DNA of 56,984 bases, taken from a virus. Its lineage: Duplodnaviria; Caudoviricetes. Position numbers and translations under genes: made by a program. A model generated the notes under the pieces. The model was not told where the DNA came from and ran no database searches. It worked only from the letters and a program-made list of their open reading frames with translations. Every line of letters starts with the position of its first letter. Positions within the stretch are counted from its first letter, which is position 1. Positions 124 to 32,039 of this stretch are shown one piece after another. The stretch covers positions 1 to 56,984 of IMG/VR virus record IMGVR_UViG_3300005326_000011. One strand, given 5' to 3'.

Positions 124-218
124 TTAAAGAGGAGTATTTTAATCGGGATTTTTTGTTTTTGACAGATAAGGGACAAAAGATTATAATTAGTCGCAGATTT
201 ATTTATTCCATAATTTAA
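15..218 (+). CDS. Hypothetical protein, 67 aa
   Basis: ATGA-coupled to the RHH gene across the circular junction and abuts the next gene. Confidence 0.6.
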   Translation: MSTILMFSKKGDKILIKVDEEPGEIWAQLNFIHLDPIKEEYFNRDFLFLTDKGQKIIISRRFIYSII

Positions 219-3030: not shown

Positions 3031-3295
3031 AATTCCAATTCCACCACTGCCTCCAAAATCCAATCTTTACAAACCAATTTCATTTTGGGCAGATATCATG
3101 TTGACTCTTGATAAAAAAATTCAATATATGGAGGAGAATATGGCGTTTGGTGAGGTTGGTGTAACTTTTAAACTTTGGCGGGGAAAAGTCACAGACATTA
3201 CATGGACTGACCATGTTAATGATAAACTTTCAGTTGATAAAATTGGTGGAAAAAATACAGTGATTGCTGAAAATAATAAAGATTTGACAAAATGA
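3017..3295 (+). CDS. Hypothetical protein; C-terminus loosely YezD/DUF2292-like
   Basis: FGEVGVTFKLWRGKVTDI; start probably among the ATGs at 3008-3017. Confidence 0.5.
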   Translation: MKPNKIPIPPLPPKSNLYKPISFWADIMLTLDKKIQYMEENMAFGEVGVTFKLWRGKVTDITWTDHVNDKLSVDKIGGKNTVIAENNKDLTK

Positions 3296-3370
3296 TACAG
3301 TATTTGATATTCTGACCGTATCACCATAGTAAAATAATTACACGGTGGCTTTAATAGGCCACTTTTTTTT
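3284..3370 (+). promoter_or_regulatory. Promoter, conserved leader and intrinsic terminator, copy 1
   Basis: TTGACA-N18-TATTCT with TG extension; CCATAGTAAAATAATT; hairpin GGTGGC/GCCACT followed by a T run. Confidence 0.75.
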
Positions 3371-3380
3371 GGTGAAAAAT

Positions 3381-3635
3381 ATGGAAATAGTAATTATTCT
3401 TGGCTTTTTAACCAATATTGGTGGTTTAATATATTGTATATATAGTCTTTCTAAAATTCATAAAAGAATTGATGCAATTTTTACGATTGATAAACCCTCA
3501 GCAAATGATCCTTCACTTACTAAAAATGTAGAAGAAAATTTTCAAGAAGAAAATTTTTTAAATATTCCACCAAACGTAAAGTTTGAAATTGAAGGTGGAG
3601 ATTCTAATGTTCCACCTGGATATACTGAAAAATAA
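3381..3635 (+). CDS. Small protein with N-terminal membrane anchor
   Basis: MEIVIILGFLTNIGGLIYCIY; the ORF-track GTG at 3345 lies inside the terminator. Confidence 0.6.
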   Translation: MEIVIILGFLTNIGGLIYCIYSLSKIHKRIDAIFTIDKPSANDPSLTKNVEENFQEENFLNIPPNVKFEIEGGDSNVPPGYTEK

Positions 3636-3637
3636 TT

Positions 3638-5776
3638 ATGGATGATCCGTCAAATAAAAACAATATGCATGAAGGGGGAGCCGTATATACTCCTGATAAA
3701 AAAACAGGTAAGCCTGTTGTGCCTGAAAATTCAGACTATGATGATGCACAGCTTGTTTATAAATGTAAAACGCTTGAAAAACAATCTTTGGCCCATAGAC
3801 GTAAATTTGACTGGGAATGGTTGGTTCGCTCCCTATATGTAAGAGGATATCATTTTGCAAATTATAATCGTGGAACAAATACTATTCTTTTTGCCTCACG
3901 AACAGGAGTTAAAATTCCAATTAATTTAGTTGGTGCACATCTTCGGGGAGTTCGCAATCAAGTAACGTCATTTCAGCCTAAATGGGAGGTGCTACCTAAT
4001 TTCACAACCTCAGCTGCATTTGATAATGCAAGATATTCTGGAAAAACTTTAGATTATATTTATGAGAAGGCTCAAATAAAGAGAAAAATTAAAGAAGCGG
4101 TTAATGATTCTTTAATGTATTCAATAGGTATTTGGATGTTTGATATAAATCAAAAAGGAGAGGTTGTTGTTTTTAGAGTTGATCCCTTTGATTTTTTCTG
4201 TGATCCAAATGTTAAATCTCCAAATATCAACGATCCAGATTACGGAGCTGAATATGTTGTTATTGCAAATCAAATGCCAGTTGATGCAATTCAAAAAAAT
4301 AAAGATTTTAATGAGAATAGACTAAATATTCAAACTGATAACTTAGTGGCCGCTGCCGAATATAAACGGTTTTTACTTCAAGTTACTAAAAATGCTTTTT
4401 CAGCTCAAAAAGAATTTAATCAGACAGTTATTGTAAAGACGGCATATCTAAGGGAGAGACAAAATGATGGAAGTATAAAAATTAGACAGGTTGTATATAC
4501 TGAAAATGATGACAGACCACTTTTAAATAAACTTCTTGATACTGATGAATATCCATTTGAAGTTTTAAGAGGAGATATTACACCAGGCGATTTATATTCT
4601 GAGGCTTGGATTAAACATTTAATTCCAATAAATCGGGTGATTGATGCTCTTGAGTCACATATTTTTGAATATAATCATTTTTTTGCCCGTGGCAAATGGA
4701 TTATTGATAAAAATTCAGGGGTTAAGCTAATCACAAATCAACACGGACAAATAATTGAAAAAAATAGAGGAAGCCAGGTTCAACCAATTACTGTTCCGCC
4801 TCTTCCCCCATCGCCTCAGGAACAAATTTCCAATATGAGAAAATACCTTGAAGATATTTCAGGGGTTCATGATGTCTCACTTGGACGATTACCTGGGACG
4901 ATAAGGAGTGGGTCGGCAATTGCTGAGCTTCGTCAATCTGATGCAACTAATCAATCTGATTTAGTTGACAATCTTGAAGACTTTTTATCCCGAGCTGGTC
5001 GTAAAATTCTAAGGCTTGTCGCCGAAAACTGGACGACATCAAAACTGATTACTGTAACAGGCATCGGTGGCAAACCTGAGTATTTTATGGCAGTTGGAGA
5101 AGATTCTCCACTTTCTAAATCTAAAAATGGAAAAAAAGTTAAGTCTGGTGATAAAGAGCTTCCACTTGCGGTTATTGGTAAAGAGAATGATGTTCGAGTT
5201 CAGATAGGGAGTTGGCTTGCTTATACAAAAGAGGCTCGAATGGAGAAACTTAAAGAACTTTTCAGACTTGGTGCAATTGATCAAAGAAGTTTTCTTAATC
5301 ATTTAGAGTTTGCAGATACAGATGGAATAATTCAAAGGACACGTGAGGAGCAAACCTATCAACAGTATGCAGGTAAAAAAAGTGAACAAGTTCAAAAAGA
5401 ATATGGGATTCAGCTTGATGAGGAGTCACTTGCTATGGCTGAAAATGAACTTATGCTTGAAGGGACAGAGCAACATGCAGAGGCACAAGATGATCATGAA
5501 ATTCATATGTTAGTTCATAAAGAACAGGGAGAAAATAAATTAGTACTTGCGCATATCAAAGAGCATGAAAGATTTGATAAATGGCAAAAGAAAATGCAAT
5601 TAAATCCAATTATGCCAAATGAATCAATGGAAGCTCCAATTCCACCAGGTATGCCAATGGGGCCTGAAGTTCCAGGAGCTTCACCTGAGGTTCCGCCATT
5701 TATGATGGGAGCACCAATTGGACCTGGGGCGCCACCCCTTCCACCAGGGGAAATTCCTGGAGTTCCTGGACTATGA
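3638..5776 (+). CDS. Portal protein (P22-like)
   Basis: 712 aa after terL; VDPFDFFCDP and LEDISGVHDVSLG..SGSAI motifs; Pro/Gly-rich tail. Confidence 0.85.
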   Translation: MDDPSNKNNMHEGGAVYTPDKKTGKPVVPENSDYDDAQLVYKCKTLEKQSLAHRRKFDWEWLVRSLYVRGYHFANYNRGTNTILFASRTGVKIPINLVGAHLRGVRNQVTSFQPKWEVLPNFTTSAAFDNARYSGKTLDYIYEKAQIKRKIKEAVNDSLMYSIGIWMFDINQKGEVVVFRVDPFDFFCDPNVKSPNINDPDYGAEYVVIANQMPVDAIQKNKDFNENRLNIQTDNLVAAAEYKRFLLQVTKNAFSAQKEFNQTVIVKTAYLRERQNDGSIKIRQVVYTENDDRPLLNKLLDTDEYPFEVLRGDITPGDLYSEAWIKHLIPINRVIDALESHIFEYNHFFARGKWIIDKNSGVKLITNQHGQIIEKNRGSQVQPITVPPLPPSPQEQISNMRKYLEDISGVHDVSLGRLPGTIRSGSAIAELRQSDATNQSDLVDNLEDFLSRAGRKILRLVAENWTTSKLITVTGIGGKPEYFMAVGEDSPLSKSKNGKKVKSGDKELPLAVIGKENDVRVQIGSWLAYTKEARMEKLKELFRLGAIDQRSFLNHLEFADTDGIIQRTREEQTYQQYAGKKSEQVQKEYGIQLDEESLAMAENELMLEGTEQHAEAQDDHEIHMLVHKEQGENKLVLAHIKEHERFDKWQKKMQLNPIMPNESMEAPIPPGMPMGPEVPGASPEVPPFMMGAPIGPGAPPLPPGEIPGVPGL

Positions 5777-5913
5777 AACCAACAGTAAAGCGATTTAACC
5801 AAAAAAAAACTTATAAAGGAAGAACTGTCAAGCGGACAGTTGTATCTATTAACAGTTTAAAGCGTAAAGGCCGAAAAATGAAGCCAATGCGTGCTATGAA
5901 AAAAGGAAGGTGA
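5773..5913 (+). CDS. 46-aa highly basic peptide, absent from the ORF track
   Basis: MKPTVKRFNQKKTYKGRTVKRTVVSINSLKRKGRKMKPMRAMKKGR; ATGA overlap with the portal stop. Confidence 0.55.
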   Translation: MKPTVKRFNQKKTYKGRTVKRTVVSINSLKRKGRKMKPMRAMKKGR

Positions 5914-5918
5914 AATTT

Positions 5919-6179
5919 ATGAAAATTAAATCAGACCATTATAAACCATATAAAGAGAAAATGGAAGAAATATCAAAAGATATGAAAGGTATGGGTTTTG
6001 GAGTGCCAGATTGTGAGCCAGCTGACCTTTATGGAAAACGGGTTAATTTAGATCAAAATGATAAATCAAATCTTGGGGAAACGGCTGAAGATATTCAAGA
6101 ATTTTATGGACTTTGTGATTATAACGGTAATTCTAAAAAAATGGGTGGAGTTAGTGAGAGCAATGATGAGAGTTATTAA
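5919..6179 (+). CDS. Hypothetical protein
   Basis: ORF preceded by SD-like GGAAGGTGA. Confidence 0.6.
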   Translation: MKIKSDHYKPYKEKMEEISKDMKGMGFGVPDCEPADLYGKRVNLDQNDKSNLGETAEDIQEFYGLCDYNGNSKKMGGVSESNDESY

Positions 6180-6207
6180 AAATTAACAATAGAAGGGGGT
6201 GAGAAAT

Positions 6208-6555
6208 ATGAACTATACATATATCGCAGCAGATAATTCAGCAGGAGACGCTCAAGTACTTGGTGCTGCTTCTCAGGATATTTATGTTTGGGGTATTCAT
6301 TTTGGTGCTCCAACTGCAGGTACAATTACTCATTTTTATAATAAAAGAGTTGCTCCAGGACATACATCTGGAATGGGTAGCGTATCAACTGATAGTTTGG
6401 CTTGGTATTTAGTTCAACCAACAGCAGCTGCTGGAAATAACCTACAGTATGATGTTTGGTTTGAAAAACCTTTACAACTTGATGGTGGATCAGTTCACAC
6501 TGATGATGATAAGGTTACTATCATTTGGGAGCCTGTAGATCAGGCAACTGAGTAA
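6208..6555 (+). CDS. Putative virion or decoration beta-protein
   Basis: SD GGGGGTGA; small beta-rich protein in the head module. Confidence 0.55.
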   Translation: MNYTYIAADNSAGDAQVLGAASQDIYVWGIHFGAPTAGTITHFYNKRVAPGHTSGMGSVSTDSLAWYLVQPTAAAGNNLQYDVWFEKPLQLDGGSVHTDDDKVTIIWEPVDQATE

Positions 6556-6569
6556 GGAGGTGAAAAAAT

Positions 6570-6845
6570 ATGAAATTAGACACAAAACAACCTTCAACTT
6601 CTCCAAAAGCAGGAGGGAGTGGTAAAGTGGCTGTAGGAGGATTTGGTGCGGTTGGCACACCTTCTAAAGTTTCACTTCCTCAGCATGGCGGGGAGGGTGG
6701 AGATAAATATAAAGGACAAAAAAGCGATATGGGCTTAAAACAACACGGAGGAGAGGGGAATACTCTTAAATCCGCAAGTAATAGCACACTTATGAATCCA
6801 AAAGATAAATCATACGCTGGTCCTGGAAGAAATTTAGGTAATTAG
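6570..6845 (+). CDS. Gly/Lys-rich hypothetical protein
   Basis: SD AGGAGGTGA; QHGGEG occurs twice. Confidence 0.65.
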   Translation: MKLDTKQPSTSPKAGGSGKVAVGGFGAVGTPSKVSLPQHGGEGGDKYKGQKSDMGLKQHGGEGNTLKSASNSTLMNPKDKSYAGPGRNLGN

Positions 6846-6867
6846 TACTTTTACAATTAGTTCTAAT

Positions 6868-7000
6868 CGGAGATTTAGGGTTCTCACCTACTTTACCTGA
6901 TAGACGTATCAGGGTTTTAGGCGAGAATCCTTAAATCTTCGGGGGTCGCCCACCTTAGAGGTGTTAGACGTTACAATCGGAAGATTGTTTTAAAAATATT
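6868..7000 (+). ncRNA. Structured leader upstream of the scaffold gene
   Basis: Long stem CGGAGATTTAGGGTTCTCACCTA/TAGGCGAGAATCCTTAAATCTTCG with inner CCTGATA-GACG-TATCAGG; contains G-U pairs. Confidence 0.55.
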
Positions 7001-7702
7001 ATGGAAAATGATGAAAAAATAATCCCCGAGTCAACCCCGTCAGTTGAAAACCCAGTTGTTGACCCAACCCCATCGCAAGATGAGGATAAACAACCTGGTA
7101 AGAAGACGGCAGAAGCTCGGATTGATCAGCTTATTGCGATCAACAAACAGTTACAAAATGATTTACAGGAAGTAAAGGGAAAGGTAGATGCAATTCCTGT
7201 ACCTACCCCACCTCCTGAGCCTGTTGATCCAAGCGTAACTCCAGATGTTGAGAAAGCCGTAGGTTTTGTTAAAAAGGTTGGAAAATTCGTTGACCAAGAT
7301 TATCTTGAGAGTAAACTCAAGTCAATGGAGGATAGACGAGTTCTTGATTCCGAACACTCAAAATATGAGTCAACTTTTAACGGACAAGACGGTGGACCTG
7401 TTTATAACAGAGGTGAGATGGAAAAATACATGAATGATACAGGTATTTATAATCCAAAAGCCGCATATGAGCAGAAATTTAAAGACGAGCTTTTTGATCT
7501 CAGGCTTAAAACCCTTGAGAAGAGCCGAAAAACTAAAGCCTATGTACCAAATGCAAGTTCAACGGCAGAAACACGTGATAATAATTTAATCAGTCGTGAA
7601 AAGATTGATGAAGTTATGAAGCACCCAACGCCTGAAAATAAAGCATGGTATGAACAAAATAGAGCTTCTATTTTGGCTATGTATAGAAAGGGTCAATTAT
7701 AA
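7001..7702 (+). CDS. Putative capsid scaffolding protein
   Basis: Acidic Pro-rich N-terminus, coiled coil (AEARIDQLIA), directly before the capsid gene. Confidence 0.7.
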   Translation: MENDEKIIPESTPSVENPVVDPTPSQDEDKQPGKKTAEARIDQLIAINKQLQNDLQEVKGKVDAIPVPTPPPEPVDPSVTPDVEKAVGFVKKVGKFVDQDYLESKLKSMEDRRVLDSEHSKYESTFNGQDGGPVYNRGEMEKYMNDTGIYNPKAAYEQKFKDELFDLRLKTLEKSRKTKAYVPNASSTAETRDNNLISREKIDEVMKHPTPENKAWYEQNRASILAMYRKGQL

Positions 7703-7733
7703 ATTGACTACAGATAGGGGGTGAAAAAATAAT

Positions 7734-8831
7734 ATGGCACTCGGTACAGATCAGATGACGACCACAACGGGGGATTCTTTTATTCCCTCAGTATGGTCAG
7801 CGGAGGTACTTAGAGCAACTGAAAATGCTTTAGTAATGGCTCAATAACGGGGCCTTTTAGATTTAGCACTTGAAAATAGGTTAAAATCTATCAAAAAGGG
7901 GGCAAACTCGGGGAACACCCAGAACGGGTAACCGCCGAACTAAATAGGAGAAATCCTTAAAAGCGTAGAGAACAAACGCTCCCACTCTTTAAAAAGAGGA
8001 AGATATGTTCCGAACTGATTAGGAATAATCAGAAGCAAGAAATAGAAAACTTGCGATAACAAAAAGCCGTTAGTTAAGAGATTTGATAGTTTAGTTGAGG
8101 GTAAAGGGAATACTATTAATATTCCAAATTTGAGCAATTTATCAGCTTCAACAAAGTCTGCTAATACTCAAGTAACTTTACAAAGTCCAACTGAATCAAA
8201 CACATCAATCTCTATAACAACCCATAAAGAATCGTCATTTTTAGTGGAGGATCTTTTGAAGGTACAAGCCAGCTATGATTTAATGGCGGAATATACTTCA
8301 AAAGCAGGTGAATCTATTGCACGATCTGTTGATACTGATTTATTAGGCGTTTATTCCTCATCCACAAATACGGATGTTGGAGCTTATGGAACAGATATCA
8401 CTGATGCAACGATTCTTGCCGCTGCTGAATCTTTGGATTTAGCAAACGCACCTCTTGATGATAGAGCATTAGTTATCTATCCAACCCAAAAAACAGCCTT
8501 AATGAGAATTGATAAATTCGTTAAAGCTGACTATATGGGTCAATATCAAGATCCAACTGTTGTGAGAACAGGACCAAACTCAAGGTATATGTGGGGAGAC
8601 ATTTATGGAGTTCCAGTGTATTACACCAAACAGGTAACTCAGACTGCTGGTACACCTACACAAACTCATAACATGATGTTTCATAAGGAAGGTATTGCAT
8701 TAGCACTACAACAGGCTCCAAGAACACAAGCGGATTACCGTCTTGAATACTTGGGTACTTTAGTTGTTGTTGATGTTATATACGGATACACAGCTTTGAG
8801 ACCAACTTTCTTGCAACATATAAAGTCGTAA
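7734..8831 (+). CDS. Major capsid protein, spliced: exon 1 7734-7841 and exon 2 8067-8831 (290 aa)
   Basis: Joined MALGTDQMTTTTGDSFIPSVWSAEVLRATENALVMA|PLVKRFDSLVEGKGNTINIP; FIPxVW, GNTINIP, GDIYGVPVY and VDVIYG are HK97-fold capsid-like motifs; SD GGGGGTGA. Confidence 0.9.
7842..8066 (+). ncRNA. Group I self-splicing intron, 225 nt, no ORF
   Basis: 5' exon ends in U and intron ends in G; P1 GGCU/GGCC with U-G; P10 TAACGG(7845-50)/CCGTTA(8067-72); P3 GGGGGC/GCTCCC; P7 GAACA(7970-74)/TGTTC(8006-10); splicing restores the frame. Confidence 0.9.
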
Positions 8832-8837
8832 GATTTT

Positions 8838-8885
8838 ATGTAAAGTTCTTGGTGGTGTAAAGACACCACCAAGGGCATTTATATA
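8838..8885 (+). terminator. Hairpin after the capsid gene (terminator or processing stem)
   Basis: CTTGGTGGTGT-AAAG-ACACCACCAAG with AT-rich flanking pairing. Confidence 0.6.
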
Positions 8886-8898
8886 AGTTTATAAAAAT

Positions 8899-9114
8899 AT
8901 GGCAATAGTTATAATAAAATCAGGAAATGATAAAAGAGCTTCTCATTGGAATGAGATAAGATCAAGAGTTAAAACTCATGAGGGAGAATTTTTAACAGGT
9001 AGAAAAGGGCTTGAATATCAAAGAAAGTGGGGTCGTAAATATTTAGGTCGAGATTTAAATACAAGACCCGTTAGTTCATCAGACGTTGAGAGATTTGAAA
9101 AGACAGGACATTAA
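8899..9114 (+). CDS. Hypothetical protein
   Basis: ORF in the late operon. Confidence 0.6.
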   Translation: MAIVIIKSGNDKRASHWNEIRSRVKTHEGEFLTGRKGLEYQRKWGRKYLGRDLNTRPVSSSDVERFEKTGH

Positions 9115-9115
9115 T

Positions 9116-9736
9116 ATGATTGCTATCATAATCCCAAGTCGAGGATTTATATTTACAGATGTAATTTCGGCAATTGAAGATGAAAAGAAATATTTTTATG
9201 ATGAGGTTAAAATATTTACTTGTAGTTTGCAAATCCCAGATAGTTTTAATATTTTAACTGAAAAAGCATTAGCTGAGGGGGCAACACATTTATGGTATAT
9301 TGAAGAAGATACAGTTCCAGTTAAGGGGTCACTTAGAAAACTTATATTTTCAAGTGCGGACATTGCCTTTGTAGATTATGGAGTCAATGGTTATAGCTGT
9401 AGTGCAAAAGATAAATTAGGAAAGATTTTATGGGCAGGATTAGGATGTACGATGGTTAAGTCATATGTTTTTGAGAAACTTGATAAACCTTGGTTTAGAA
9501 CAGATAAGTCTTTAAGGCTTAATGATATGAAATGGACTGATAATAAAATGGGGTATGGTGGACAGGATATTTATTTTTATACTAAAGCAAAAGAGGCAGG
9601 ATTTAAAATAGAACAGATTATGGGTGAATGTCGTCATTTAAAACTTGAGAGTATGGGAAAGAGTGAAATAAATAATGGTTTGCATAAAATTGTTGAAAAA
9701 CCTAAAATAAGTAAGTATCAAATTATAAATTTATAA
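9116..9736 (+). CDS. GT-A (GT2-like) glycosyltransferase in the head module
   Basis: IAIIIPSRG, YIEEDT, GLGCTMVK..VFEKL.KPWF and GQDIYF..KAKEAGFKI. Confidence 0.75.
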   Translation: MIAIIIPSRGFIFTDVISAIEDEKKYFYDEVKIFTCSLQIPDSFNILTEKALAEGATHLWYIEEDTVPVKGSLRKLIFSSADIAFVDYGVNGYSCSAKDKLGKILWAGLGCTMVKSYVFEKLDKPWFRTDKSLRLNDMKWTDNKMGYGGQDIYFYTKAKEAGFKIEQIMGECRHLKLESMGKSEINNGLHKIVEKPKISKYQIINL

Positions 9737-9747
9737 ATAGAGAGGAG

Positions 9748-10029
9748 TTGAGTAATATGGCTAATTGGGAAGCGCAAGAAGTTAGAATGGTGAGTCCAAC
9801 AACAACTAACCAATCGGAGGATTTTGAAGCAGGATGTAATGCTTTGTATTTAGTGGCTGATGCTACATGTTTTATTAGCTTTGATGGTCATCCTGCAACT
9901 TCAAGTTCATTTTTAGTTGTTGCGAATCAGTTTTATCACATGGAAAAGTTAAGATTTAAAAAAGTTAATTATATCTGTTCAACTGGGACACCTAAATTAT
10001 ATTTAATTGCATCAAGAGCAACAACATGA
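9748..10029 (+). CDS. Small putative virion protein
   Basis: SD GAGGAG; beta-rich, 93 aa. Confidence 0.55.
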   Translation: MSNMANWEAQEVRMVSPTTTNQSEDFEAGCNALYLVADATCFISFDGHPATSSSFLVVANQFYHMEKLRFKKVNYICSTGTPKLYLIASRATT

Positions 10030-11009
10030 TATTAAAAAGAGATAATTCAAGACTTAAATTAGCTTTAATAAAAAAAAATAGAAGTGAAGCTAAAAAGTCT
10101 GAATTATCTGATAATAATTCATTTATTGAACCTATTAATAGGTTAGTACATGAATTGGATAATATCTCATTTAAACTAAATCAATATCTTAAAACTTCAA
10201 ATGATACGGTTGTTGAAGTTAGTACAGGAACTGAGGAAACTTTAAGGATGTTGAATAAAACAATAGTTGAAACAAAAGATCAACTTAGAATTATACCAGA
10301 TACACTATCGAATGTAGATAAAATTCTTAGTAAAGTAGCTAATATTCCTTTTCCAAAAATTCCTGAAGTTAAGTTCCCTGAAGTTCAGAAAGTTATAGGT
10401 CAAGTTAAAGTTGAAAATCAAATAAATTTATCTGGATTATCCTCAAAATTAGATAAAGTAACACAAGCAATTCAATCTTTAAGGGGTAGGTTGCAACAAA
10501 AAATTGAAGTAGATTTTCCAAAAATTGAATTTCCAAAACAAGAAATACAAAAATCAATCTCTTTAAATGAAGCTAAGGAAATCATAGATACTTTAAGGGA
10601 AGTAAAAGAATCTATAAATAAAATAAATATTCCTAAAGTTAATTTCCCATCAACTATAAATGTTGGTAATTTTCCTCCTCAAAAGTATCCAATGCCCGTA
10701 ACTCATATGTCAATTAATTCACTTCGTGGATTTGTAAAAACAACAGCGATTACTGTTTCATCTTCATTAACTCCATTACCTTCTGAAGTTTTAACAAGTC
10801 GAAGATCTATTATTGTTTACAATAATTCATCTCAAATATTAGAAGTTGGTGGTTCAACATTTACTTTTGGAAACGGATTGCCAATCCCTGCAAATTCATA
10901 TTCTCCACCTCTTGATGCAGGACCTGAAATGATTATTTATGGTCGAGTTGCCTCAAGTACGGCAGATATCCGTGTGATGGAAGTAAGTGATGAATTATCT
11001 GGAAGATAA
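10026..11009 (+). CDS. Putative virion fibre or adaptor protein, paralog A
   Basis: Coiled-coil and FP repeats; C-terminal ~110 aa closely match 13983-14969. Confidence 0.65.
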   Translation: MILKRDNSRLKLALIKKNRSEAKKSELSDNNSFIEPINRLVHELDNISFKLNQYLKTSNDTVVEVSTGTEETLRMLNKTIVETKDQLRIIPDTLSNVDKILSKVANIPFPKIPEVKFPEVQKVIGQVKVENQINLSGLSSKLDKVTQAIQSLRGRLQQKIEVDFPKIEFPKQEIQKSISLNEAKEIIDTLREVKESINKINIPKVNFPSTINVGNFPPQKYPMPVTHMSINSLRGFVKTTAITVSSSLTPLPSEVLTSRRSIIVYNNSSQILEVGGSTFTFGNGLPIPANSYSPPLDAGPEMIIYGRVASSTADIRVMEVSDELSGR

Positions 11010-11011
11010 AT

Positions 11012-13180
11012 ATGTCAATAGGAAACAGAATTGGACAAGCAGATCAACTTCATTTAACAACTCTTGATACCCGTTATTTAAAACTAACAGGTAGTCTTGC
11101 TGAAGTTTCAAATCACTCTCATACAGTACTTACTGATATTGGAACAAATACTCACGCTCAAATAGATACATATATCGCAACAACTGCCCCAGCTACATTT
11201 TTACAGATTTTAAATAACTTATCAGACCTCAATAACGTAGCAACCGCACGTACTAATCTCGGTCTAATAGCAGGTGGAACAGGTGATATCTGGGTAGAAA
11301 AAGCAGGGGATACTATGGTAGGTGCCTTAACCATCAACACCAACTCAACCACCGCTTTTGTAGTCGAGCAGGATGGGGTAAAAGATAATGTCTTAGTAGT
11401 AGATACGACAAATGGGAGGGTGGGTATTAACGTAATACCTTCGGCTGGCGCACTTTCCGTATACGGTACGAGCTATCTAGGTTCTACCGCAGATGCAACC
11501 GCACTTTCTCTTACAGGAAAAACAACTCATTCAGGACAAGTTACTACTTCATCAGGAGCAGGTGCAGTTAATTACTTTGACGGATATGCGTATTCTGGTG
11601 CAGGAAGCCAGCACATGAATACGTTTTTTAGAAACTATACTGTCGCTGGTCAATCGACCATACAGGAGTTTGGTTCAATCTATACCGTACTGTATCACTC
11701 GGCTGGATTTACTTTGCCAGAATGGAAAGGAATTGAGACTGGTGCAGCGTATGTAAGTGGAGCGGGTTCAGTAATTGACGAGGCGTGGGGAATTGATTGT
11801 AGTTTGCCAGCATGTAGCGATGGTGGTACTGTTGGTATTGCAGCGGGTGTGCATATCGGTGCTAGGTCAGTAACAGGGATAACCGATTCGTATGCAATTT
11901 ACTCACTGTTAACCAGACCATCTCTTTTCTCAAGCACGATTCAGGTTAATGATGGAGTTGGTGTAGGATTTGATATATGGCGTGATGGGGGGCAAACCTC
12001 AAATAGAATAACCGCATATCAAGATTCTGCCACATCGGGAGCAAACACTTATTACAGGTTCGCTAGAGGGTCATTGGCAACCCCTGCAAGCGTACAATCC
12101 AGTGATGTTGTTTATAATAATATCGGATATGGATATATTGATGGGAATTTTAGAGAAATAAGCAACATCAGAGCTAGTATATCTGGAACTCCCTCCGCTA
12201 CAAACTACTCATCGGCTTTACTTTTAAGAATTGTAAAAACCAACGAGACTGCGTTATCCACCGTTCTTAGATTTGACCCGACAGGGAATGCTACGTTTGG
12301 TGCATCAGCTGGAACGGGTAATTACAGGGTCTACGTTAGCGGTATCACAAACGCTTCTTCTTACTCGGGAACTGGAAGTTTAACTATTACAACAAACGGG
12401 GCAAAATTCAACTGCTACGAAGACGATGTCGCAACCACAGACGGTTATTTCAAATTGACCAATGCTACTGGTGTGGCTGGAGCATTTACCCCCTTAATGT
12501 CACTAAAGGGAAATAGAACGGGTAGTGCAGCAAACAACCAAATTGTTGCCGATAGTAACTCCGACCTAGTAACTGACACTGGTGAGGTTTTGAATATTTC
12601 ATTGCGGGCGGCAAATGGTGCGGTTACATACAGACCGTTATTGACAATAAGCAACTACACCACAGATATATTAGAAATTAGCAATGCAGGATTATTAACC
12701 TCGTATTATGGGCAATTCATAGATGGTTCATCAGATATAGTTCAGCTTAAAGTACAGGGGCATTCTTCCCAAACTGCAAACCTCACCGAGTGGCAGGATA
12801 GCAGTGCTGTGGTATTAGCTTACATATCACCAACAGGTAGTGCTTTATTCGGTGATAAGGTAGCTTTTACCCAAACAGATGGGAATGAGTACATAGACAG
12901 CTTGGCAGATGGCTACCTAGATATTGGAGCAACCACTCAGATAAGAATGTTAGCTGATACCTATATTGGAGCTAAAAATATCGTTACGGATACAACAACT
13001 GGTACTCAACTTGGAACATCGTCTACTCAAAAAATAGCCCTGTTTGGAGCTACACCTGTAGTGCAACCAGCCCATATAGCCGACCCAACAGGAGGGGCGA
13101 CAGTAGACGCAGAGGCAAGAACAGCTATTAACTCAATTAACGCATTACTTGCAACTTTAGGTCTCACAGCCAGTTCTTAG
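11012..13180 (+). CDS. Tail fibre or receptor-binding protein
   Basis: NNLSDL..VATARTNLGL, KAGDTMVGAL and VDTTNGRVGIN fibre motifs; G/S/T-rich. Confidence 0.8.
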   Translation: MSIGNRIGQADQLHLTTLDTRYLKLTGSLAEVSNHSHTVLTDIGTNTHAQIDTYIATTAPATFLQILNNLSDLNNVATARTNLGLIAGGTGDIWVEKAGDTMVGALTINTNSTTAFVVEQDGVKDNVLVVDTTNGRVGINVIPSAGALSVYGTSYLGSTADATALSLTGKTTHSGQVTTSSGAGAVNYFDGYAYSGAGSQHMNTFFRNYTVAGQSTIQEFGSIYTVLYHSAGFTLPEWKGIETGAAYVSGAGSVIDEAWGIDCSLPACSDGGTVGIAAGVHIGARSVTGITDSYAIYSLLTRPSLFSSTIQVNDGVGVGFDIWRDGGQTSNRITAYQDSATSGANTYYRFARGSLATPASVQSSDVVYNNIGYGYIDGNFREISNIRASISGTPSATNYSSALLLRIVKTNETALSTVLRFDPTGNATFGASAGTGNYRVYVSGITNASSYSGTGSLTITTNGAKFNCYEDDVATTDGYFKLTNATGVAGAFTPLMSLKGNRTGSAANNQIVADSNSDLVTDTGEVLNISLRAANGAVTYRPLLTISNYTTDILEISNAGLLTSYYGQFIDGSSDIVQLKVQGHSSQTANLTEWQDSSAVVLAYISPTGSALFGDKVAFTQTDGNEYIDSLADGYLDIGATTQIRMLADTYIGAKNIVTDTTTGTQLGTSSTQKIALFGATPVVQPAHIADPTGGATVDAEARTAINSINALLATLGLTASS

Positions 13181-13183
13181 GAG

Positions 13184-13465
13184 GTGAAAATTATGATTTT
13201 AAAACTAGAAGTAAATATACCAGACGATAAAGTAACAGGAGTCTTGGCGGACTTTGTGCATTATCATGGGTATCAGGATAAAATAAGTACTATTGTAGAT
13301 AACGAAGAAGTTCAAGTAGATAACCCGCAAACCAAAGCCCAGTTTGCCAAAACTAAAGTGGCAGAGTTTATCAAAAACTCAGTAAAAAGTTACCGTGCTA
13401 ATATATCAGCTGAGGAAGCACGAATAGCTAAAATTGAAGAAGTTGAAGCGATAAGTATAGTATAA
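13184..13465 (+). CDS. Hypothetical protein, possibly fibre-associated
   Basis: SD GGAGGTGA; true start may be ATG 13193. Confidence 0.55.
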   Translation: MKIMILKLEVNIPDDKVTGVLADFVHYHGYQDKISTIVDNEEVQVDNPQTKAQFAKTKVAEFIKNSVKSYRANISAEEARIAKIEEVEAISIV

Positions 13466-13492
13466 TTAATTATTACTAATTATTTCAAATTT

Positions 13493-13810
13493 ATGAAAAT
13501 TCTCATTTCATCTTATATTAAAAACTTTAAAGGTGAGGACATGCTTGATGAGGTTACTAAAAAGCCAGTTGAGGCACGCTCAATTATTGCAACAGCTATG
13601 GTTGCTGAGAATAATGAGAATAAATTAACTCCTGAAAAGAAAAATCAAGCCTTTCAAATTGGTATTAAACTTTACGCTCATGATGAGATTGACCTAACTA
13701 TTGAGCAAATGGCATTTATTAAAGAGAGAGTCGGTATATTTTATGGAGCTTTAGTATATGGCCGAATAAGTGAACTTTTTGACGGAAAAAAAGTTGAAGA
13801 AAAAAAATGA
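13493..13810 (+). CDS. Putative tail fibre chaperone-like protein
   Basis: EKKNQAF.IG.KL..EIDLTIE...IKERVG..YG.LVYGR pattern downstream of the fibre gene. Confidence 0.45.
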   Translation: MKILISSYIKNFKGEDMLDEVTKKPVEARSIIATAMVAENNENKLTPEKKNQAFQIGIKLYAHDEIDLTIEQMAFIKERVGIFYGALVYGRISELFDGKKVEEKK

Positions 13811-13900
13811 GTGAAGATAAAAGCTACTATCAGGAAATTAATCCGCCATTAAGCAAAGTTAAGCGGGAAACCATATAAGCCAGAGAAGTAAATAAAAGAT

Positions 13901-13978
13901 TTGACAATAATAGTTATAATTTGATAGACTAAATTACCCATTAGGAAAATAATTCCACTGAGTTTCAGTGGTTTTTTT
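13901..13978 (+). promoter_or_regulatory. Promoter, conserved leader and intrinsic terminator, copy 2
   Basis: TTGACA-N18-TAGACT with TG; CCATTAGGAAAATAATT; CCACTGA-GTT-TCAGTGG followed by T7. Confidence 0.75.
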
Positions 13979-13982
13979 ATAT

Positions 13983-14969
13983 ATGATATCTCCCAATTTT
14001 TTTAAAAATGAAAATAATCTTCAAAGACAAGAAAAACAAAACATGCTTGGGTCTTTTGTTGATTTAGTTGTACGAAATATTAGGTCAACCCTTGATAATT
14101 TGGCTAAAAACAATATATTTAGGGTAAAGGTTGAAAAAAGTGAAGATAGTCAACTTTTACGTGAAATTGCAGATAAGTTATACTCTCTTGTTGAGTATAG
14201 TAAGATATCAAATGGTAGTAAACTATCTCAAAAGATATCAGTTAAGACAACTGATTTGGTTACTGTAAATAAGGAAATAGAGAATTTACTTCGTAAAATT
14301 GAAGCTAAAGAACTTAAAGTAAATATTCCCGAACTCTCAAAAATTGTTGGAAATGTGGCTGTGACTAATTTTCCAACTGAATTTGATTTTTCAGTTATTT
14401 ACGATGCTCTTGTTGATGTACAAAGGGCAATTAAGCAAATAAAACTTGTTGTTCCGCCTCAAAGGGAGATTAAGTTTCCTGAAATTAAATTTCCAGAACC
14501 AACTTCTCCAATGATTGAGGGAAAACAAATTGTTGAGCTTCTTAAAGTATTAACTGTAGAAATTAAATCACTTCCCTCGAAAATGCCAATAACTCAAATG
14601 CCAACTGGAATGAAAGTGCATGTTGAAAACTTCCCTCCCCAGAAATACCCAATGCCAGTTACTCATATGTCTATAAATTCACTTAATGGTTTTGCTAAAT
14701 CAAGGGCGGTGACCGTAACATCAACTTTAACACCACTTCCCGCTGAGGTTTTAAGTTATAGACGAGCTCTTACTATTTATAATAATTCAAGTCAAACTGT
14801 ATATATTGGAGGGTCTGATGTAACTGTTTCAAATGGACTTCCAATTCCAGCGGGAACTTATTCACCAGCGATTGATGCTGGGTCTCGTATGATTATTTAT
14901 GGAATTGTTTCATCAGCAACCTCAGATATTCGTATATTAGAAGTTTCTGATGAAAATTCAGGACGATAA
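13983..14969 (+). CDS. Putative virion fibre or adaptor protein, paralog B
   Basis: Shares NFPPQKYPMPVTHMSINSL...EVSDE.SGR with 10026-11009. Confidence 0.65.
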   Translation: MISPNFFKNENNLQRQEKQNMLGSFVDLVVRNIRSTLDNLAKNNIFRVKVEKSEDSQLLREIADKLYSLVEYSKISNGSKLSQKISVKTTDLVTVNKEIENLLRKIEAKELKVNIPELSKIVGNVAVTNFPTEFDFSVIYDALVDVQRAIKQIKLVVPPQREIKFPEIKFPEPTSPMIEGKQIVELLKVLTVEIKSLPSKMPITQMPTGMKVHVENFPPQKYPMPVTHMSINSLNGFAKSRAVTVTSTLTPLPAEVLSYRRALTIYNNSSQTVYIGGSDVTVSNGLPIPAGTYSPAIDAGSRMIIYGIVSSATSDIRILEVSDENSGR

Positions 14970-14970
14970 T

Positions 14971-15384
14971 ATGGCAATAACACCAGGGACAGCAACTACA
15001 GCATTTTCCGCAGGAACTGGCGGACTTAATACGATTGGTAAAGTTGGTCCAAATGATTATGAACTTGCTGGAAATACACTTCATGTAAAAAAATATTATA
15101 CAAATGCTGGGGCGGTAACTGATGGGATAGTATGGAGTCCTGCTTCTGGTAAAAGATGGTATATAACAGATATATTTATCAACGTATCAGCGGCTGCAAC
15201 TGTAACACTTGAAGATGATTTAGTAGCTGGAGATAGTGTAGTATGGAAAGCAGAACTTGCCGCAAATAGCGGATGGTCACATTCTTTCACGACCCCCCTT
15301 TATAGTAGCGAGGATGAGGCTGATTTAATTATTACAACAAGTACAGCTACTTGTTATGTAACCATTTGTGGTTATGAAGTGTAA
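14971..15384 (+). CDS. Putative virion beta-sandwich protein
   Basis: Follows paralog B; WSPASGKRWYITDI; Thr/Ala-rich. Confidence 0.55.
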   Translation: MAITPGTATTAFSAGTGGLNTIGKVGPNDYELAGNTLHVKKYYTNAGAVTDGIVWSPASGKRWYITDIFINVSAAATVTLEDDLVAGDSVVWKAELAANSGWSHSFTTPLYSSEDEADLIITTSTATCYVTICGYEV

Positions 15385-15386
15385 AT

Positions 15387-16064
15387 ATGGCAATACAATT
15401 TGATTCATCTTCTAATGGAACTACTACTTCTACAAGTCCTTTAAAGTGGAATCATATATGTACAGGAACAAATTTAGTATTGATTATTGCCGTTGTTGTT
15501 AGGGCAAGTAGTGGTCCAAATTGTACTGGTATAACTTATAATAATATTTCATTAACATTATTGGGTTCAAAAAGGACAACGGGAGCTTCTCCAAATGCAC
15601 AAATAAGTTTATGGTATTTATTAAATCCCGCTATTGGAAGTAATGAAATATCCGTAAGTTTTACTGGAAGTACGGTATCTTGTAATGCTGGAGCTGTTTC
15701 TTGGACTGGAGTATCTCAAAGTGGACAACCAGATGCAGTAAATGGAGTAAGTAATGGTGTTTCAGCCAATCCTTCAATTACAATAACAACTATTTCTGAT
15801 AATTGTTGGGTTGTTGGAGGGTTAGCTTCTACAAGAAGTCCTACTCCTGTATTAACAGATAGATGGACAGGAGCAGTTTCACTAAATTTTGGTAGTCTTG
15901 AAGATACAAATGGTAATGTTACTCCAGCTGGTGATCAAGTAGTTTCTTGGACGTCAACAACTACATTATATGGTATATCAGTAGCTTCATTTTCTCCAGC
16001 TGATGAAACAATAACCTCAGTAAAAGATATTATTAGTTCAGGATTTATTCCTTTTGCAAGATGA
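15387..16064 (+). CDS. Ser/Thr-rich putative virion adhesin domain
   Basis: GTNLVLIIAV..GITYN..SLWYLLNP.IG, a beta-sandwich surface-domain pattern. Confidence 0.55.
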   Translation: MAIQFDSSSNGTTTSTSPLKWNHICTGTNLVLIIAVVVRASSGPNCTGITYNNISLTLLGSKRTTGASPNAQISLWYLLNPAIGSNEISVSFTGSTVSCNAGAVSWTGVSQSGQPDAVNGVSNGVSANPSITITTISDNCWVVGGLASTRSPTPVLTDRWTGAVSLNFGSLEDTNGNVTPAGDQVVSWTSTTTLYGISVASFSPADETITSVKDIISSGFIPFAR

Positions 16065-16294
16065 TATTAGATTATATTAAATCATGTTTATTTATTACTT
16101 TACTTTTTGTAACTATTTTGGCAGTATTAAAAGTTAATGAATATGGGGTAAGCAGTACCACAGTTTGTGGGTTTGTTGAAGCGTGTCGATTTAATAAGGG
16201 TATAATAGAATTACATAATACATATTCAGTATGTAAATATGAAGACTATAAAGAAGCAACAGCCTCGTCAAATTTAGATTTGACAGGACAATAA
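16061..16294 (+). CDS. Hypothetical protein
   Basis: ATGA-coupled ORF that ends within the next promoter. Confidence 0.5.
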   Translation: MILDYIKSCLFITLLFVTILAVLKVNEYGVSSTTVCGFVEACRFNKGIIELHNTYSVCKYEDYKEATASSNLDLTGQ

Positions 16295-16370
16295 CTTATT
16301 TGTTAGTATTATATATCCAATAGGAAAATAATTTCCGCTGGGAGCCGCAAGGTTTCGAGCGATTTTTTTT
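16280..16370 (+). promoter_or_regulatory. Promoter, conserved leader and intrinsic terminator, copy 3
   Basis: TTGACA-N18-TAGTAT with TG; CCAATAGGAAAATAATT; GCAA-capped hairpin followed by T8. Confidence 0.75.
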
Positions 16371-16378
16371 GTAAAAAA

Positions 16379-17125
16379 ATGTCAAAAACACTTTCAACAA
16401 TAAGAACACAAATGAGAAGTTATCTTGATGAGGCTACAGCTTTAGATTGGTCTGACGCTGAGTTAAATAGATTACTTAACATTTATTATCATAAAGTTCG
16501 AGTTAATGCAATTACCGCTTATGAGGATTATTTTGTAACTTCAACAACATTTAGTACAGTTGCTGACCAAGAAGAATATGACAATAGTGACGGAGTTCCA
16601 ACTGATATTTTTAAATTAAGGCGTGTTGAGCTAAATTATGATGTAACAACCACCTCAGGTGCTCCAACTCGATGTTTACCAATATTTAATATAGATGCAG
16701 TAAGACGTGATTTGGGATATGAGAACGCTGGAATTGGTCTTAAAGTATTTGGAAATGCCTATTATTATACTTATGGATATGGAGCAAATACAGTAATTGG
16801 ATTTATTCCAAAACCAGACAAAACAGGAACAAATGCGGTTAAAATTTGGTACATTCCAGAAGTTGCTGATTTATCCTCAGATAGCTCAACTATTGATATT
16901 CCCTATCCAGACCAATACTGGATAAATATAGTTTATGGAGCAATGAGTGAGGCTTTAAGGTTTGGTTCACAAGATACAGATAATGCAGATAAGTTTGACG
17001 CTAAATATGAGCGTGGCACCTTAAAAATGCAGGAGGATCTAAAGGATAAACTGGCAGAGGAGGGGAAATCTGTTATGGATGTTCTAGGAGATAGTATTTC
17101 CGCTGATATGGGCGGACCATATTAA
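16379..17125 (+). CDS. Head-tail adaptor (tubular protein A-like)
   Basis: TLSTIRTQMRSYLDE..WSDAELNRLLN, TVADQEEY and IPKPD patterns. Confidence 0.7.
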   Translation: MSKTLSTIRTQMRSYLDEATALDWSDAELNRLLNIYYHKVRVNAITAYEDYFVTSTTFSTVADQEEYDNSDGVPTDIFKLRRVELNYDVTTTSGAPTRCLPIFNIDAVRRDLGYENAGIGLKVFGNAYYYTYGYGANTVIGFIPKPDKTGTNAVKIWYIPEVADLSSDSSTIDIPYPDQYWINIVYGAMSEALRFGSQDTDNADKFDAKYERGTLKMQEDLKDKLAEEGKSVMDVLGDSISADMGGPY

Positions 17126-18641: not shown

Positions 18642-19340
18642 ATGATACCTAAAAATATAAAATTATTCGTTGAGGGTGGTAAAAAAACAAGATTTATTAA
18701 AGGAAATAAATCTTGGAATTATGGAATGGCTAAAAAATACATTTGCAAAACTTGTAAAAATGAATTTAAAAACAAATCGCATGGAAGACCAAAGTATTGT
18801 AGCCCAAAATGTAAAAAAATCGGTAATTGGGGGAAATTAGTTGGTAAATGGAATTTGGGAAGAAAATTAAGTAAAGAAAGAAAAAAGCAGATGAGTAAAA
18901 AAGCAAAAGAATTAGGTTTAGGTAAAAACCTTTTTATCCCAGATATAAGAAAAAAAGCGATTGAAAATTCAAGAAGAAGATTAATTGGTAAACCAAGTTG
19001 GAATAGAGGAGGAAAAGCTCCTTGGGTCATTGGAGAAAAAAATATAAATTGGAAAGGTGGAATTTCTACAGAAAGTAGAAAAGAAAGAAAAATCTTTGAG
19101 TGGTTAAGGAAAGAGGTTTTAAAACGAGATGATTATACTTGTCAAATATGTTGGAAAAGGGGAGGAATTTTACATGTTGACCACATACAAAGATGGTCTG
19201 ATTTTAAAAACCTTAGATTTAAAATGGAAAATTGTAGAACGCTTTGTCAGATTTGTCATTATAAAATAACATTTAAAAGACCCATTTCAAATGAAAGTAA
19301 AAAGTGGGGTATTAAAAATTACTTTCAGATAGGAGGATAA
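18642..19340 (+). CDS. Free-standing HNH endonuclease with NUMOD3-like repeats
   Basis: NWKGG, VLKRDDYTCQIC, LHVDHI and NCRTLCQICH. Confidence 0.9.
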   Translation: MIPKNIKLFVEGGKKTRFIKGNKSWNYGMAKKYICKTCKNEFKNKSHGRPKYCSPKCKKIGNWGKLVGKWNLGRKLSKERKKQMSKKAKELGLGKNLFIPDIRKKAIENSRRRLIGKPSWNRGGKAPWVIGEKNINWKGGISTESRKERKIFEWLRKEVLKRDDYTCQICWKRGGILHVDHIQRWSDFKNLRFKMENCRTLCQICHYKITFKRPISNESKKWGIKNYFQIGG

Positions 19341-24206: not shown

Positions 24207-24347
24207 TTTTTTAATAAAATCAGGAAGATGAAATAAAAAATCAAAAAATATAATAATTGGAGCAATAATATATCCAAATATTAATAATCCAATAGCATAA
24301 GGATTAAATATAAATAAGGCTAATAATATAATTAAAATTATATTCAT
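24195..24347 (-). CDS. 50-aa membrane protein (moron), absent from the ORF track
   Basis: MNIILIILLALFIFNPYAIGLLIFGYIIAPIIIFFDFLFHLPDFIKKLFS, directly behind a consensus promoter. Confidence 0.65.
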   Translation of the reverse strand: MNIILIILLALFIFNPYAIGLLIFGYIIAPIIIFFDFLFHLPDFIKKLFS

Positions 24348-24355
24348 AATATAAC

Positions 24356-24384
24356 ATTATAACATATTACTAATTAAAAGTCAA
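24356..24384 (-). promoter_or_regulatory. Consensus sigma70 promoter for the moron
   Basis: TTGACT-N17-TATAAT with TG extension; ATG 8 nt downstream. Confidence 0.75.
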
Positions 24385-24386
24385 GT

Positions 24387-27471: not shown

Positions 27472-27598
27472 AGCTTAGTCGTGTGGAAACGAGTGAGCTA
27501 AAGTAAAATAGATTTGGCTCGGTCTTTTATCCCCTCCCCAATTACTATTTTCACCTTTCGGTGTTTCAGCTTTGTCTATTTTCCACACAATTAAACTA
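27471..27598 (-). ncRNA. Structured intergenic element, ~128 nt
   Basis: Terminal ~19-bp stem with G-U pairs, nested stems, CACC-GAAA-GGTG hairpin. Confidence 0.55.
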
Positions 27599-30394: not shown

Positions 30395-30397
30395 ATC

Positions 30398-30733: not shown

Positions 30734-30748
30734 AGGTTATTTAAACTT

Positions 30749-32037: not shown

Positions 32038-32039
32038 AA

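Follow-up and report, generated by a model that had tools for sequence, protein, structure and literature searches.

Promoter, hairpin and terminator units before the virion operons of an uncultured phage as candidate antitermination switches for late genes

The DNA analyzed here is a complete virus record (IMGVR_UViG_3300005326_000011, Caudoviricetes) of 56,984 bp, hereafter the window, with a GC content of 33% and, by reading, direct terminal repeats of 123 bp (1-123 equal to 56862-56984). On its plus strand, three sites named U1 (3284-3370), U2 (13901-13978), and U3 (16280-16370) share one layout, in which a promoter is followed by a box of 16-17 nt, a GC-rich hairpin, a run of 7-8 T, and an ATG. 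The unit coordinates were read directly and the promoters were taken from a consensus scan, while the function of promoters and terminators is predicted from the sequence. The parts of the three units are the following.

3284-3313, plus strand: U1 promoter, -35 TTGACA at 3284-3289, spacer of 18, TG at 3305-3306, -10 TATTCT at 3308-3313
3324-3339, plus strand: U1 box, CCATAGTAAAATAATT
3324-3343, plus strand: U1 box with its hairpin, CCATA, stem-loop GTAA-AATAA-TTAC at 3329-3341, then AC
3344-3370, plus strand: predicted U1 intrinsic terminator, 8-bp stem, hairpin at 3344-3363, T8 at 3363-3370; ATG at 3381
13901-13930, plus strand: U2 promoter, -35 TTGACA at 13901-13906, spacer of 18, TG at 13922-13923, -10 TAGACT at 13925-13930
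13938-13954, plus strand: U2 box, CCATTAGGAAAATAATT
13938-13956, plus strand: U2 box with its hairpin, CCATTA, stem-loop GGAA-AATAA-TTCC at 13944-13956, the last CC common to the terminator stem
13955-13978, plus strand: predicted U2 intrinsic terminator, 7-bp stem, hairpin at 13955-13971, T7 at 13972-13978; ATG at 13983
16280-16309, plus strand: U3 promoter, -35 TTGACA at 16280-16285, spacer of 18, TG at 16301-16302, -10 TAGTAT at 16304-16309
16317-16333, plus strand: U3 box, CCAATAGGAAAATAATT
16317-16336, plus strand: U3 box with its hairpin, CCAATA, stem-loop GGAAA-ATAA-TTTCC at 16323-16336, the last C common to the terminator stem
16336-16370, plus strand: predicted U3 intrinsic terminator, bulged 10-bp stem, hairpin at 16336-16361, T8 at 16363-16370; ATG at 16379

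All three promoters match the consensus of the extended -10 sigma70 type (TTGACA, spacer of 18, TG), this assignment being a consensus match only, and all three hairpins are GC-rich and followed by a U-tract, as expected of intrinsic terminators. The consensus scan lists the terminators of U1 and U2, and the bulged hairpin of U3 was found only by a custom script. Folding of the U1 leader with its terminator gave -11.7 kcal/mol, with the small hairpin of the box present in the minimum free energy (MFE) structure of the leader, and folding of the U3 terminator gave -18.7 kcal/mol. A promoter, a box, and a terminator had been pointed out at these three sites in a reading of the letters alone (the original prediction). 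This architecture proved to be real and non-random, both on direct reading and in the consensus scan, and the terminators indeed differ while the box is kept. Two details stood only in part. The box does lie downstream of the -10, but it starts 7-10 nt past it and not at about 10 nt. The terminator precedes the ATG starts, which fall after the T-runs at a distance of 5-11 nt in the window, but not every open reading frame (ORF), as ORF callers list GTG-start ORFs at 3345 and 13968 that begin within the hairpins.

The 12-mer AGKAAAATAATT occurs without mismatch at three places in the window, each in a unit, compared with a composition estimate of about 0.17; with up to two mismatches, the count (69) is close to the 62.6 expected. 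GATTTGACA is found four times without mismatch, always on the plus strand (25 vs 23.4 expected with up to one mismatch), and the fourth copy, at 43658, is a promoter that has neither box nor terminator and whose -10 lies 7 nt upstream of the ATG start of an HNH gene. Terminator-like sites between 20 and 57 kb are at or below the shuffle expectation (7 vs 8.4 and 7 vs 6.1 expected), and the scans list no terminator at the convergent gene junctions at about 27.26 kb and 53.33 kb. Among the canonical terminators of the genome, those of U1-U3 are the clearest; they lie 20-25 nt past a promoter and before the first ATG of the virion operons, and are thus unlike ordinary operon ends, since the genome elsewhere stays at or below the shuffle level and its convergent junctions have none. 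A search of the window against Rfam gave no match at gathering thresholds.

The genes that follow the units were identified by PHROG and Pfam scans of the window ORFs and by comparison with a complete relative of 56,483 bp (G001).

3381-3635, plus strand: first gene after U1, 84 aa, hydrophobic N-terminus by eye, kept in relatives
3638-5776, plus strand: portal gene, directly after the 84-aa ORF
13983-14969, plus strand: first gene after U2, paralog of 10026-11009 by the G001 protein comparison
16379-17125, plus strand: first gene after U3, tail or virion structural protein; in G001, a corresponding unit lies upstream of the homologous gene

The units therefore stand where the original prediction had placed them, before the portal/head operon, a second fibre cassette, and the tail operon. 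The fibre cassette is a duplicated one: a single G001 protein, encoded there by one copy of the gene, is matched by 10026-11009 at 35% identity and by 13983-14969 at 33%, so that U2 apparently arrived with the duplicated cassette. The second fibre copy with its own unit suggests a cassette that was duplicated or exchanged. The family of the 84-aa protein has a conserved C-terminal motif, KFE.EGGD...PPG, and accompanies the unit in all related loci read.

Related loci were collected with a portal query in viral contigs (22 loci) and with a portal profile in metagenome contigs (55 loci). From these 77 loci (L numbers below), 9 with too little upstream DNA and 18 that were exact duplicates over the upstream 500 nt were set aside, and 50 were examined. 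A locus was scored as positive when it had a TTGAC-type -35, a stable hairpin closing at most 3 nt from a T-run, and the ATG of a small pre-portal ORF. The full layout was found upstream of the small-ORF/portal pair in 43 of the 50 loci, with some near-duplicates within the 43, and it extends to the clade whose portal identity is about 30% (L020, L022, L024, and L077). A TTGAC(A/T)-type -35 precedes the unit in relatives, and the T-run ends 0-16 nt from the ATG in most of them. Conservation of the box in relatives, on which the original prediction had been made to depend, thus took the form of a conserved layout in which each clade or genome has its own box. Two loci in viral contigs matched the promoter-box pattern exactly; one of them, L002, was rejected as a unit, as the pattern words are present with nothing terminator-like in the following 60 nt. 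A tail-gene query in viral contigs gave no match.

An alignment of 28 leaders with MAFFT has the consensus ACCnTAG-nGAAAnAACC-ACACGG. The element after (U/G)AG in these leaders is a stem-loop, the stem of which varies in sequence among relatives with its pairing retained, and the element overall consists of CCnUA, a stem of 2-5 bp, a loop that is usually AAnAA, and a short spacer. The following stems were read.

U1: GUAA/UUAC
U2 and U3: GGAA/UUCC
L008: GUAG/CUAC
L019: GUUG/CAAC
L036: GAAG/CUUC
L040, L064, and L070: GGAG/CUCC
L043: GCG/CGC
L052: CGG/CCG
L013, L035, L053, L073, and L085: GGG/CCC
L039: GUG/CAC
L003 and L048: GGA/UCC
L086: GCAG/CUGC

U1 (GTAA..TTAC) and U2 (GGAA..TTCC) differ from each other by one compensatory double change, and the pentaloops are AAnAA-like in 13 of 13 examples, with at most one departure each. 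When 24 unique leaders, with 19 distinct stems, were anchored on the 5' side at (U/G)AG, the mean pairing was 3.125 vs 2.25 +/- 0.16, a value reached by none of 5000 shuffles, and at least 3 bp were formed in 18 of the 24 leaders vs 7.2 expected (maximum 15). Anchoring at two ends gave 2.43 vs 1.75 +/- 0.17, which none of 2000 shuffles reached. The hairpin 3' arm either reaches up to 4 nt into the terminator 5' arm or ends up to 6 nt before it. By reading, the two arms overlap by 1-4 nt in U2, U3, L019, L040, L057, L064, L070, L073, L086, and L093, and in these units hairpin and terminator would be mutually exclusive; a spacer of 2-6 nt lies between them in U1, L003, L035, L052, L053, and L014.

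Within a genome, the units have their box in common. The window has one box in all three units, and both units of G001, before the portal operon and before the 16379 homolog, have GAAG-loop-CUCA. Two genomes of the far clade, G003 and G004, contain two units each with ACUCUUG-loop-UAUGAG; their second unit is made up of a promoter, terminator, T7, and ATG, and its hairpin has GAG in common with the terminator stem. The far clade also contains a G-U pair (CTCTTG..TATGAG vs CTCTTA..TATGAG). Because the stem is free between genomes and fixed within them while the structure is kept, a co-evolving trans-acting partner is indicated. Moreover, the structure is kept and the loop is both kept and strand-asymmetric, which favours recognition of RNA, or of single-stranded non-template DNA, over duplex DNA.

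Considering these observations, we propose that the units may be factor-dependent antitermination switches for late genes that read a sense-strand hairpin, a reading to which we give about even chances of being correct. In this scheme, a strong promoter of the host sigma70 type would fire constantly, and the intrinsic terminator about 20-25 nt into the transcript would stop RNA polymerase, so that an RNA of about 45-55 nt is released and the operon stays off. The leader hairpin would be the recognition site of a factor, specified by the phage and produced earlier in infection, which, once bound to the nascent hairpin, would prevent termination and allow the portal/head, fibre, and tail genes to be transcribed. 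The factor might block or compete with the adjoining terminator stem, given the range from a 4-nt overlap to 6 nt upstream, or it might travel with the polymerase in the manner of lambda N; with lower probability, the hairpin would be recognized as non-template strand DNA in a complex paused early. The action could be local (steric or competitive, RAT-like) or processive (N-like), and a local mechanism would suffice because each operon has its own unit and other terminators are lacking. Readthrough would have to be switchable, since discarding most transcripts of the most highly expressed genes would otherwise be senseless. The antitermination logic put forward in the original prediction is therefore likely, while its Q-type form, with a pause or a DNA site, is weaker than recognition of an RNA hairpin of the N-boxB, LoaP, or RAT kind, because what relatives conserve is a stem-loop of the sense strand, A-rich in its loop and adjoining or overlapping the terminator.

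Several results weigh against this proposal. Termination and regulated readthrough are predictions from the sequence, and the PHROG and Pfam scans of the window ORFs gave no recognizable antiterminator gene. The script finds no unit in 7 of the 50 loci (L007, L017, L063, L071, L076, L088, and L089). One of these, L063, has by eye a hairpin, T7, and ATG behind a TTGATT -35, and in L017, L071, and L088 another gene replaces the small upstream ORF. On the other hand, L007 (3530-3606; 65% portal identity) has a promoter and a box-like leader with no terminator hairpin or T-run before the ATG, so that the terminator is dispensable in at least one lineage. As for the hairpin, the loop of L050 is U5 and not A-rich, and anchors slid upstream yield 2.42-2.93, so that the margin of the 5'-anchored test is modest. 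An unanchored search for a hairpin near the terminator was not significant (3.47 vs 3.33, reached by 221 of 1000 shuffles), and RNAalifold predicted 0 pairs on the MAFFT alignment of 36 units, in which hairpins of unequal loop size are set in different registers. A covariance model (27 positions, 4 pairs) gave 12 matches at E<=1, mostly seeds and near-copies. Besides, the stems are very short and thermodynamically weak, the MFE structure (ViennaRNA) includes the hairpin in some units only, U1 among them, and the spacing from hairpin to terminator varies. Since the tests are of mixed strength and the stems short, we consider the hairpin supported, not proven.

Some of the same features could come from terminators that are not regulated. 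An attenuator or insulator of this type would end incoming transcription and trim its own promoter by a fixed fraction, and would set the stoichiometry of the modules with no trans-acting factor, the box being a 5'-untranslated region (5'-UTR) element for mRNA stability or for translation independent of Shine-Dalgarno motifs. The compactness of the genome, with T-runs that run into the ATG in most relatives, agrees with such a device, as do the ability of L007 to manage without a terminator and the failure of the scans to find an antiterminator gene; Shine-Dalgarno-like motifs are rare (17 of 94 starts), and an A/U-rich leader could aid translation. We hold this explanation to be unlikely, as most transcripts of the top-expressed genes would be lost with a strong terminator (GC-rich stem of 7-8 bp, U7-8) behind the strong promoter, and as neither the covarying hairpin with its conserved loop nor the single box in all units of a genome is explained. 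The hairpin also begins about 5-20 nt from the predicted 5' end, a position in which 5' stabilizers are not known to sit. Alternatively, the units could be genes of small regulatory RNAs (sRNAs) of about 50 nt, which would act with a 5' seed, terminator, and U-tail on host or phage mRNAs, readthrough being secondary. Many sRNAs have this shape of a short 5' element, a terminator, and a U-tail, three copies with one box resemble multi-copy sRNA families, and two reports can be counted in favour: passages on Pseudomonas phage 201phi2-1 describe 5'-UTR-derived sRNAs made by premature termination (PMC11512511), and for Stx phages an always-on pR' is described that is terminated at once, with the short transcript acting as an sRNA (PMC7547250). 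However, the late genes have no other promoter and just 5-11 nt part the T-run from the ATG, so that readthrough would be needed whatever the short RNA does, and the window holds no antisense target of the box at up to two mismatches (minus-strand rows judged by eye). An sRNA function in place of the switch is thus improbable, and the two are not exclusive, an sRNA being compatible with antitermination.

Recognition of the box as double-stranded DNA would be a further alternative, in which an inverted repeat such as GGAA-N5-TTCC at +5 to +20 is the operator of a dimeric repressor or activator and the terminator is a separate element. The repeat has the size of an operator and overlaps the initial transcribed region, symmetric changes in its half-sites would mimic covariation, and the ORF 56475-56879 is possibly ribbon-helix-helix-like (weak HicB-like match, E 0.037). 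Such an operator is nonetheless very improbable: the loop is strand-asymmetric, being rich in A on the sense strand in most units read, a property for which a symmetric dimer site has no need; the window itself has unlike half-sites in U1 and U2, a G-U pair is tolerated in the far clade, and the universal adjoining terminator would be unexplained. Least probable of all is a Q-like mechanism, in which a DNA-binding factor would load on the polymerase at a sigma-dependent pause caused by a -10-like element in the box, after which the terminator would be ignored. Its logic and position are those of pR'-qut-tR', the window box contains AATAAT, a -10-like hexamer, a small gene ends at the promoter as Q does in lambdoid phages, and a GAT 5' of TTGACA is common to the three units. 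The boxes of most relatives, e.g., GGAGAACAACTCC, CGGAAAAACCG, and GGGAAGTACCC, lack the -10-like hexamer, however, and the GAT is not kept in relatives, where position -1 of TTGACA is C, T, or A; the scans also gave no match to a Q family.

The late timing that we assume for the switches has to be seen beside other strong promoters of the window, among them the following.

159-187, plus strand: perfect sigma70 consensus promoter, TTGACA-17-TATAAT, 12 of 12 matches, before the TerS-like gene, TerL, and 3017-3295, with no terminator after it
55832-55804, minus strand: perfect consensus promoter
38142-38114, minus strand: promoter, TTGACT-17-TATAAT
35771-35743, minus strand: promoter, TTGACA-17-TATACT

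Late timing cannot stem from the promoter class, because promoters of the early region are of the same TTGACA/TATAAT type and the scans gave neither a sigma factor nor an RNA polymerase gene. An ATG lies about 7 nt past the -10 at 38142-38107 (minus strand) and 43661-43698 (plus strand), and the TerS-like gene of G001 is arranged alike (L012, 1265-1303), which suggests leaderless mRNAs at 38107 (minus strand) and 43696 (plus strand). Further minus-strand features were observed. At 36586-36403, a strong promoter of the extended -10 type (TTGACA-18-TAAATT with TG) precedes about 150 nt of leader with an 8-bp hairpin (CUGUGUUC..GAACACAG) and a T7 that abuts the ATG of the RNase H gene; Rfam gave no match to this leader, which may be a structured leader or a non-coding RNA. 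About 260 nt without an ORF (36053-35790) lie upstream of the promoter at 35771-35743, and a near-consensus promoter (24384-24356, TTGACT-17-TATAAT with TG) points from the gap 24206-24387 antisense into tail genes.

If a phage factor reads the hairpin, the only linked candidate, by its position, is the small ORF that ends at U1, here named gpX.

3017-3295, plus strand: gpX, 92 aa, stop codon within the U1 promoter, at the end of the unattenuated TerS-TerL operon

A gpX homolog is found in the identical place, directly before the promoter, in 24 of 24 aligned relatives, the far clade included, and the family has the motif FWS..LD.K...G(F/Y)G.(I/V)...GK(V/I). AlphaFold2 predicts a helix (21-40) and a beta-hairpin (43-69), with a mean pLDDT of 79 and a pTM of 0.54; the structure prediction that had been advised for the small ORFs thus gave a model with no informative fold match. 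Comparison of gpX with a PDB sequence profile gave nothing informative, Foldseek gave no PDB match at E<=0.001, and the wide VIA-align search gave no informative fold (best Z 3.9). Two of 25 family members match DUF2292 (YezD-like, PF10055), with a best E of 0.018, which is below the gathering score, and the window protein gave no match; the ESM Atlas returned viral hypotheticals and a weak DUF2292 lead (0.77), and a search of 5.8 billion proteins returned 25 matches, all unnamed. The proposal that gpX is the factor is therefore tentative, and we regard it as possible but doubtful, because conserved gene order in the packaging module would explain the same placement. The original prediction had named two small ORFs that end at promoters: 3017-3295 keeps its place on account of its position, and 16061-16294, which has a hydrophobic N-terminus by eye and no G001 homolog, is a poor candidate.

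The search for an Arg-rich N-like ORF in the window gave, as the sole polybasic ORF, a wrong frame of the NinG gene, and short disordered proteins could escape such a search. This ORF (28757-29209, minus strand; 150 aa, pI 12, 53 K/R) overlaps the NinG-family gene in another frame, has no relative, and was rejected as an N-like factor; it is probably spurious. The gene that it overlaps (28750-29163, minus strand, 137 aa) is NinG-family with an E of 1.4e-7, and its G001 homolog is likewise NinG-family. Small Cys-rich or basic ORFs, further possible candidates, are present at 27256-27471, 28275-28463, 28599-28760, 29227-29555, and 55559-55741. The ORF 56475-56879 has, by reading, a ribbon-helix-helix-like N-terminus and a Cys-rich C-terminus; it overlaps the start of ORF 15-218 (ATGA) across the terminal repeat, just upstream of the promoter at 159, and may regulate the packaging operon.

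The remaining gene calls of the PHROG and Pfam scans are the following.

220, plus strand: TerS-like ORF
733, plus strand: TerL
8130, plus strand: major head protein
Virion module, plus strand: fibre-like genes
15387, 16379, and 17128, plus strand: tail and virion proteins
25918, plus strand: peptidase/endolysin-like gene
27256-38107, minus strand: block of small early-type ORFs, including NinG-like, RNase H, and Cas4-like
53333-56092, minus strand: second block of small ORFs

In agreement with the original prediction, no Q, N, or NusG-like protein was detected among these ORFs in the PHROG and Pfam scans, and neither was a sigma factor or an RNA polymerase; a scan for tRNA genes found none. 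Megablast of 3000-17000 against phage records gave no match. The best tblastn matches of the portal reach just 22-24% identity, to actinobacterial and Bacillus phages, and the portal profile found no relative in a collection of bacterial and archaeal genomes, for which reasons no host is assigned. A perfect 14-bp hairpin without U-tract (8845-8876) lies directly 3' of the major head gene and may be a 3' stabilizer, or a partial stop that tunes head-to-downstream stoichiometry. A large plus-strand block of glycosyltransferase, methyltransferase, acetyltransferase, epimerase, and M24 peptidase genes (39168-53329; 28-65% identity with G001) may serve DNA or surface-glycan modification. HNH endonuclease genes are found at 18642-19340, 34016-34543, and 43696-44088, the last one inside the sugar-transferase block with its own GATTTGACA promoter; mobility is suggested for the gene at 18642, because its G001 homolog occupies another genomic place.

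Among published systems, ONT-cappable-seq of 201phi2-1 has revealed terminators directly after promoters ahead of the major capsid gene, for which a role in timing was suggested and antitermination was hypothesized (PMC11512511). That phage is an unrelated giant phage with its own polymerases, and the passages concerned describe neither a conserved hairpin operator nor family-wide conservation. Other reported systems are Xp10 p7 (PMC4513864, PMC6624301), P23-45 gp39 (PMC3351154), and conAn (PMC8191782). In a full-text literature search, neither the present phage group nor the operator was found described. A new antitermination system, composed of a minimal hairpin operator of about 13 nt repeated before each late operon and a factor of the gpX family unrelated to Q, N, NusG paralogs, p7, and gp39, would be consistent with our data, and we put it forward as an unlikely proposal. 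If the antitermination reading holds, each unit would be a compact and portable switch of about 90 bp in total (promoter, 13-nt hairpin, and terminator), and a family of uncultured phages could time the expression of its virion genes with host sigma factor and polymerase, having none of its own. The few phage antitermination systems would then gain a recognition element that is new, and probably also a new family of proteins; the units would likewise provide a mechanistic example for the unexplained promoter-proximal terminators that parts of the long-read transcriptomics literature describe (PMC11512511). The natural hairpin variants are ready sets of orthogonal operators for work on specificity.

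The units share with the lambda Q system (pR'-qut-tR') a sigma70 promoter, presumably constitutive, an immediate terminator, an expected short RNA, the late genes as targets, and a small gene just upstream, gpX directly before U1 being the parallel of gene Q before pR'. They differ from it in that the phage has three separate units and the Q system one, and in that relatives conserve a sense-strand hairpin and not a -10-like pause inducer with a DNA site; the scans found no Q homolog. In LoaP leader hairpins and RfaH ops, a dedicated factor is brought in by a short element that lies in the leader ahead of intrinsic terminators, and in ops the non-template DNA forms a small hairpin, but the PHROG and Pfam scans detected no NGN or KOW protein among the window ORFs. 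The RAT sites of BglG/LicT and the targets of ANTAR proteins likewise consist of a weak, protein-dependent hairpin beside or overlapping the 5' arm of a strong terminator, with a copy per operon; unlike RAT, the overlap in our units is found in some of them only and the hairpin is much smaller, and the same scans detected no CAT/PRD or ANTAR domain. HK022 put is a factor-independent RNA of about 65-70 nt with two stem-loops downstream of a promoter, whereas the leader before the terminator is about 20-30 nt here and contains one tiny hairpin. Compared with lambda N and nut, the stem of the units is AU-rich and of 2-5 bp vs 5 bp in boxB, the terminator follows within 0-6 nt, and the operons under control are late structural ones and not early ones; no element recognizable by the known boxA consensus is seen in the 20-nt leaders. 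Like nut, on the other hand, each unit places a small stem-loop with a purine-rich loop, of five bases in the common form, soon after a host-type promoter and with a terminator downstream, and the AAnAA loop is similar to the boxB loops GAAAA, GAAGA, and GACAA.

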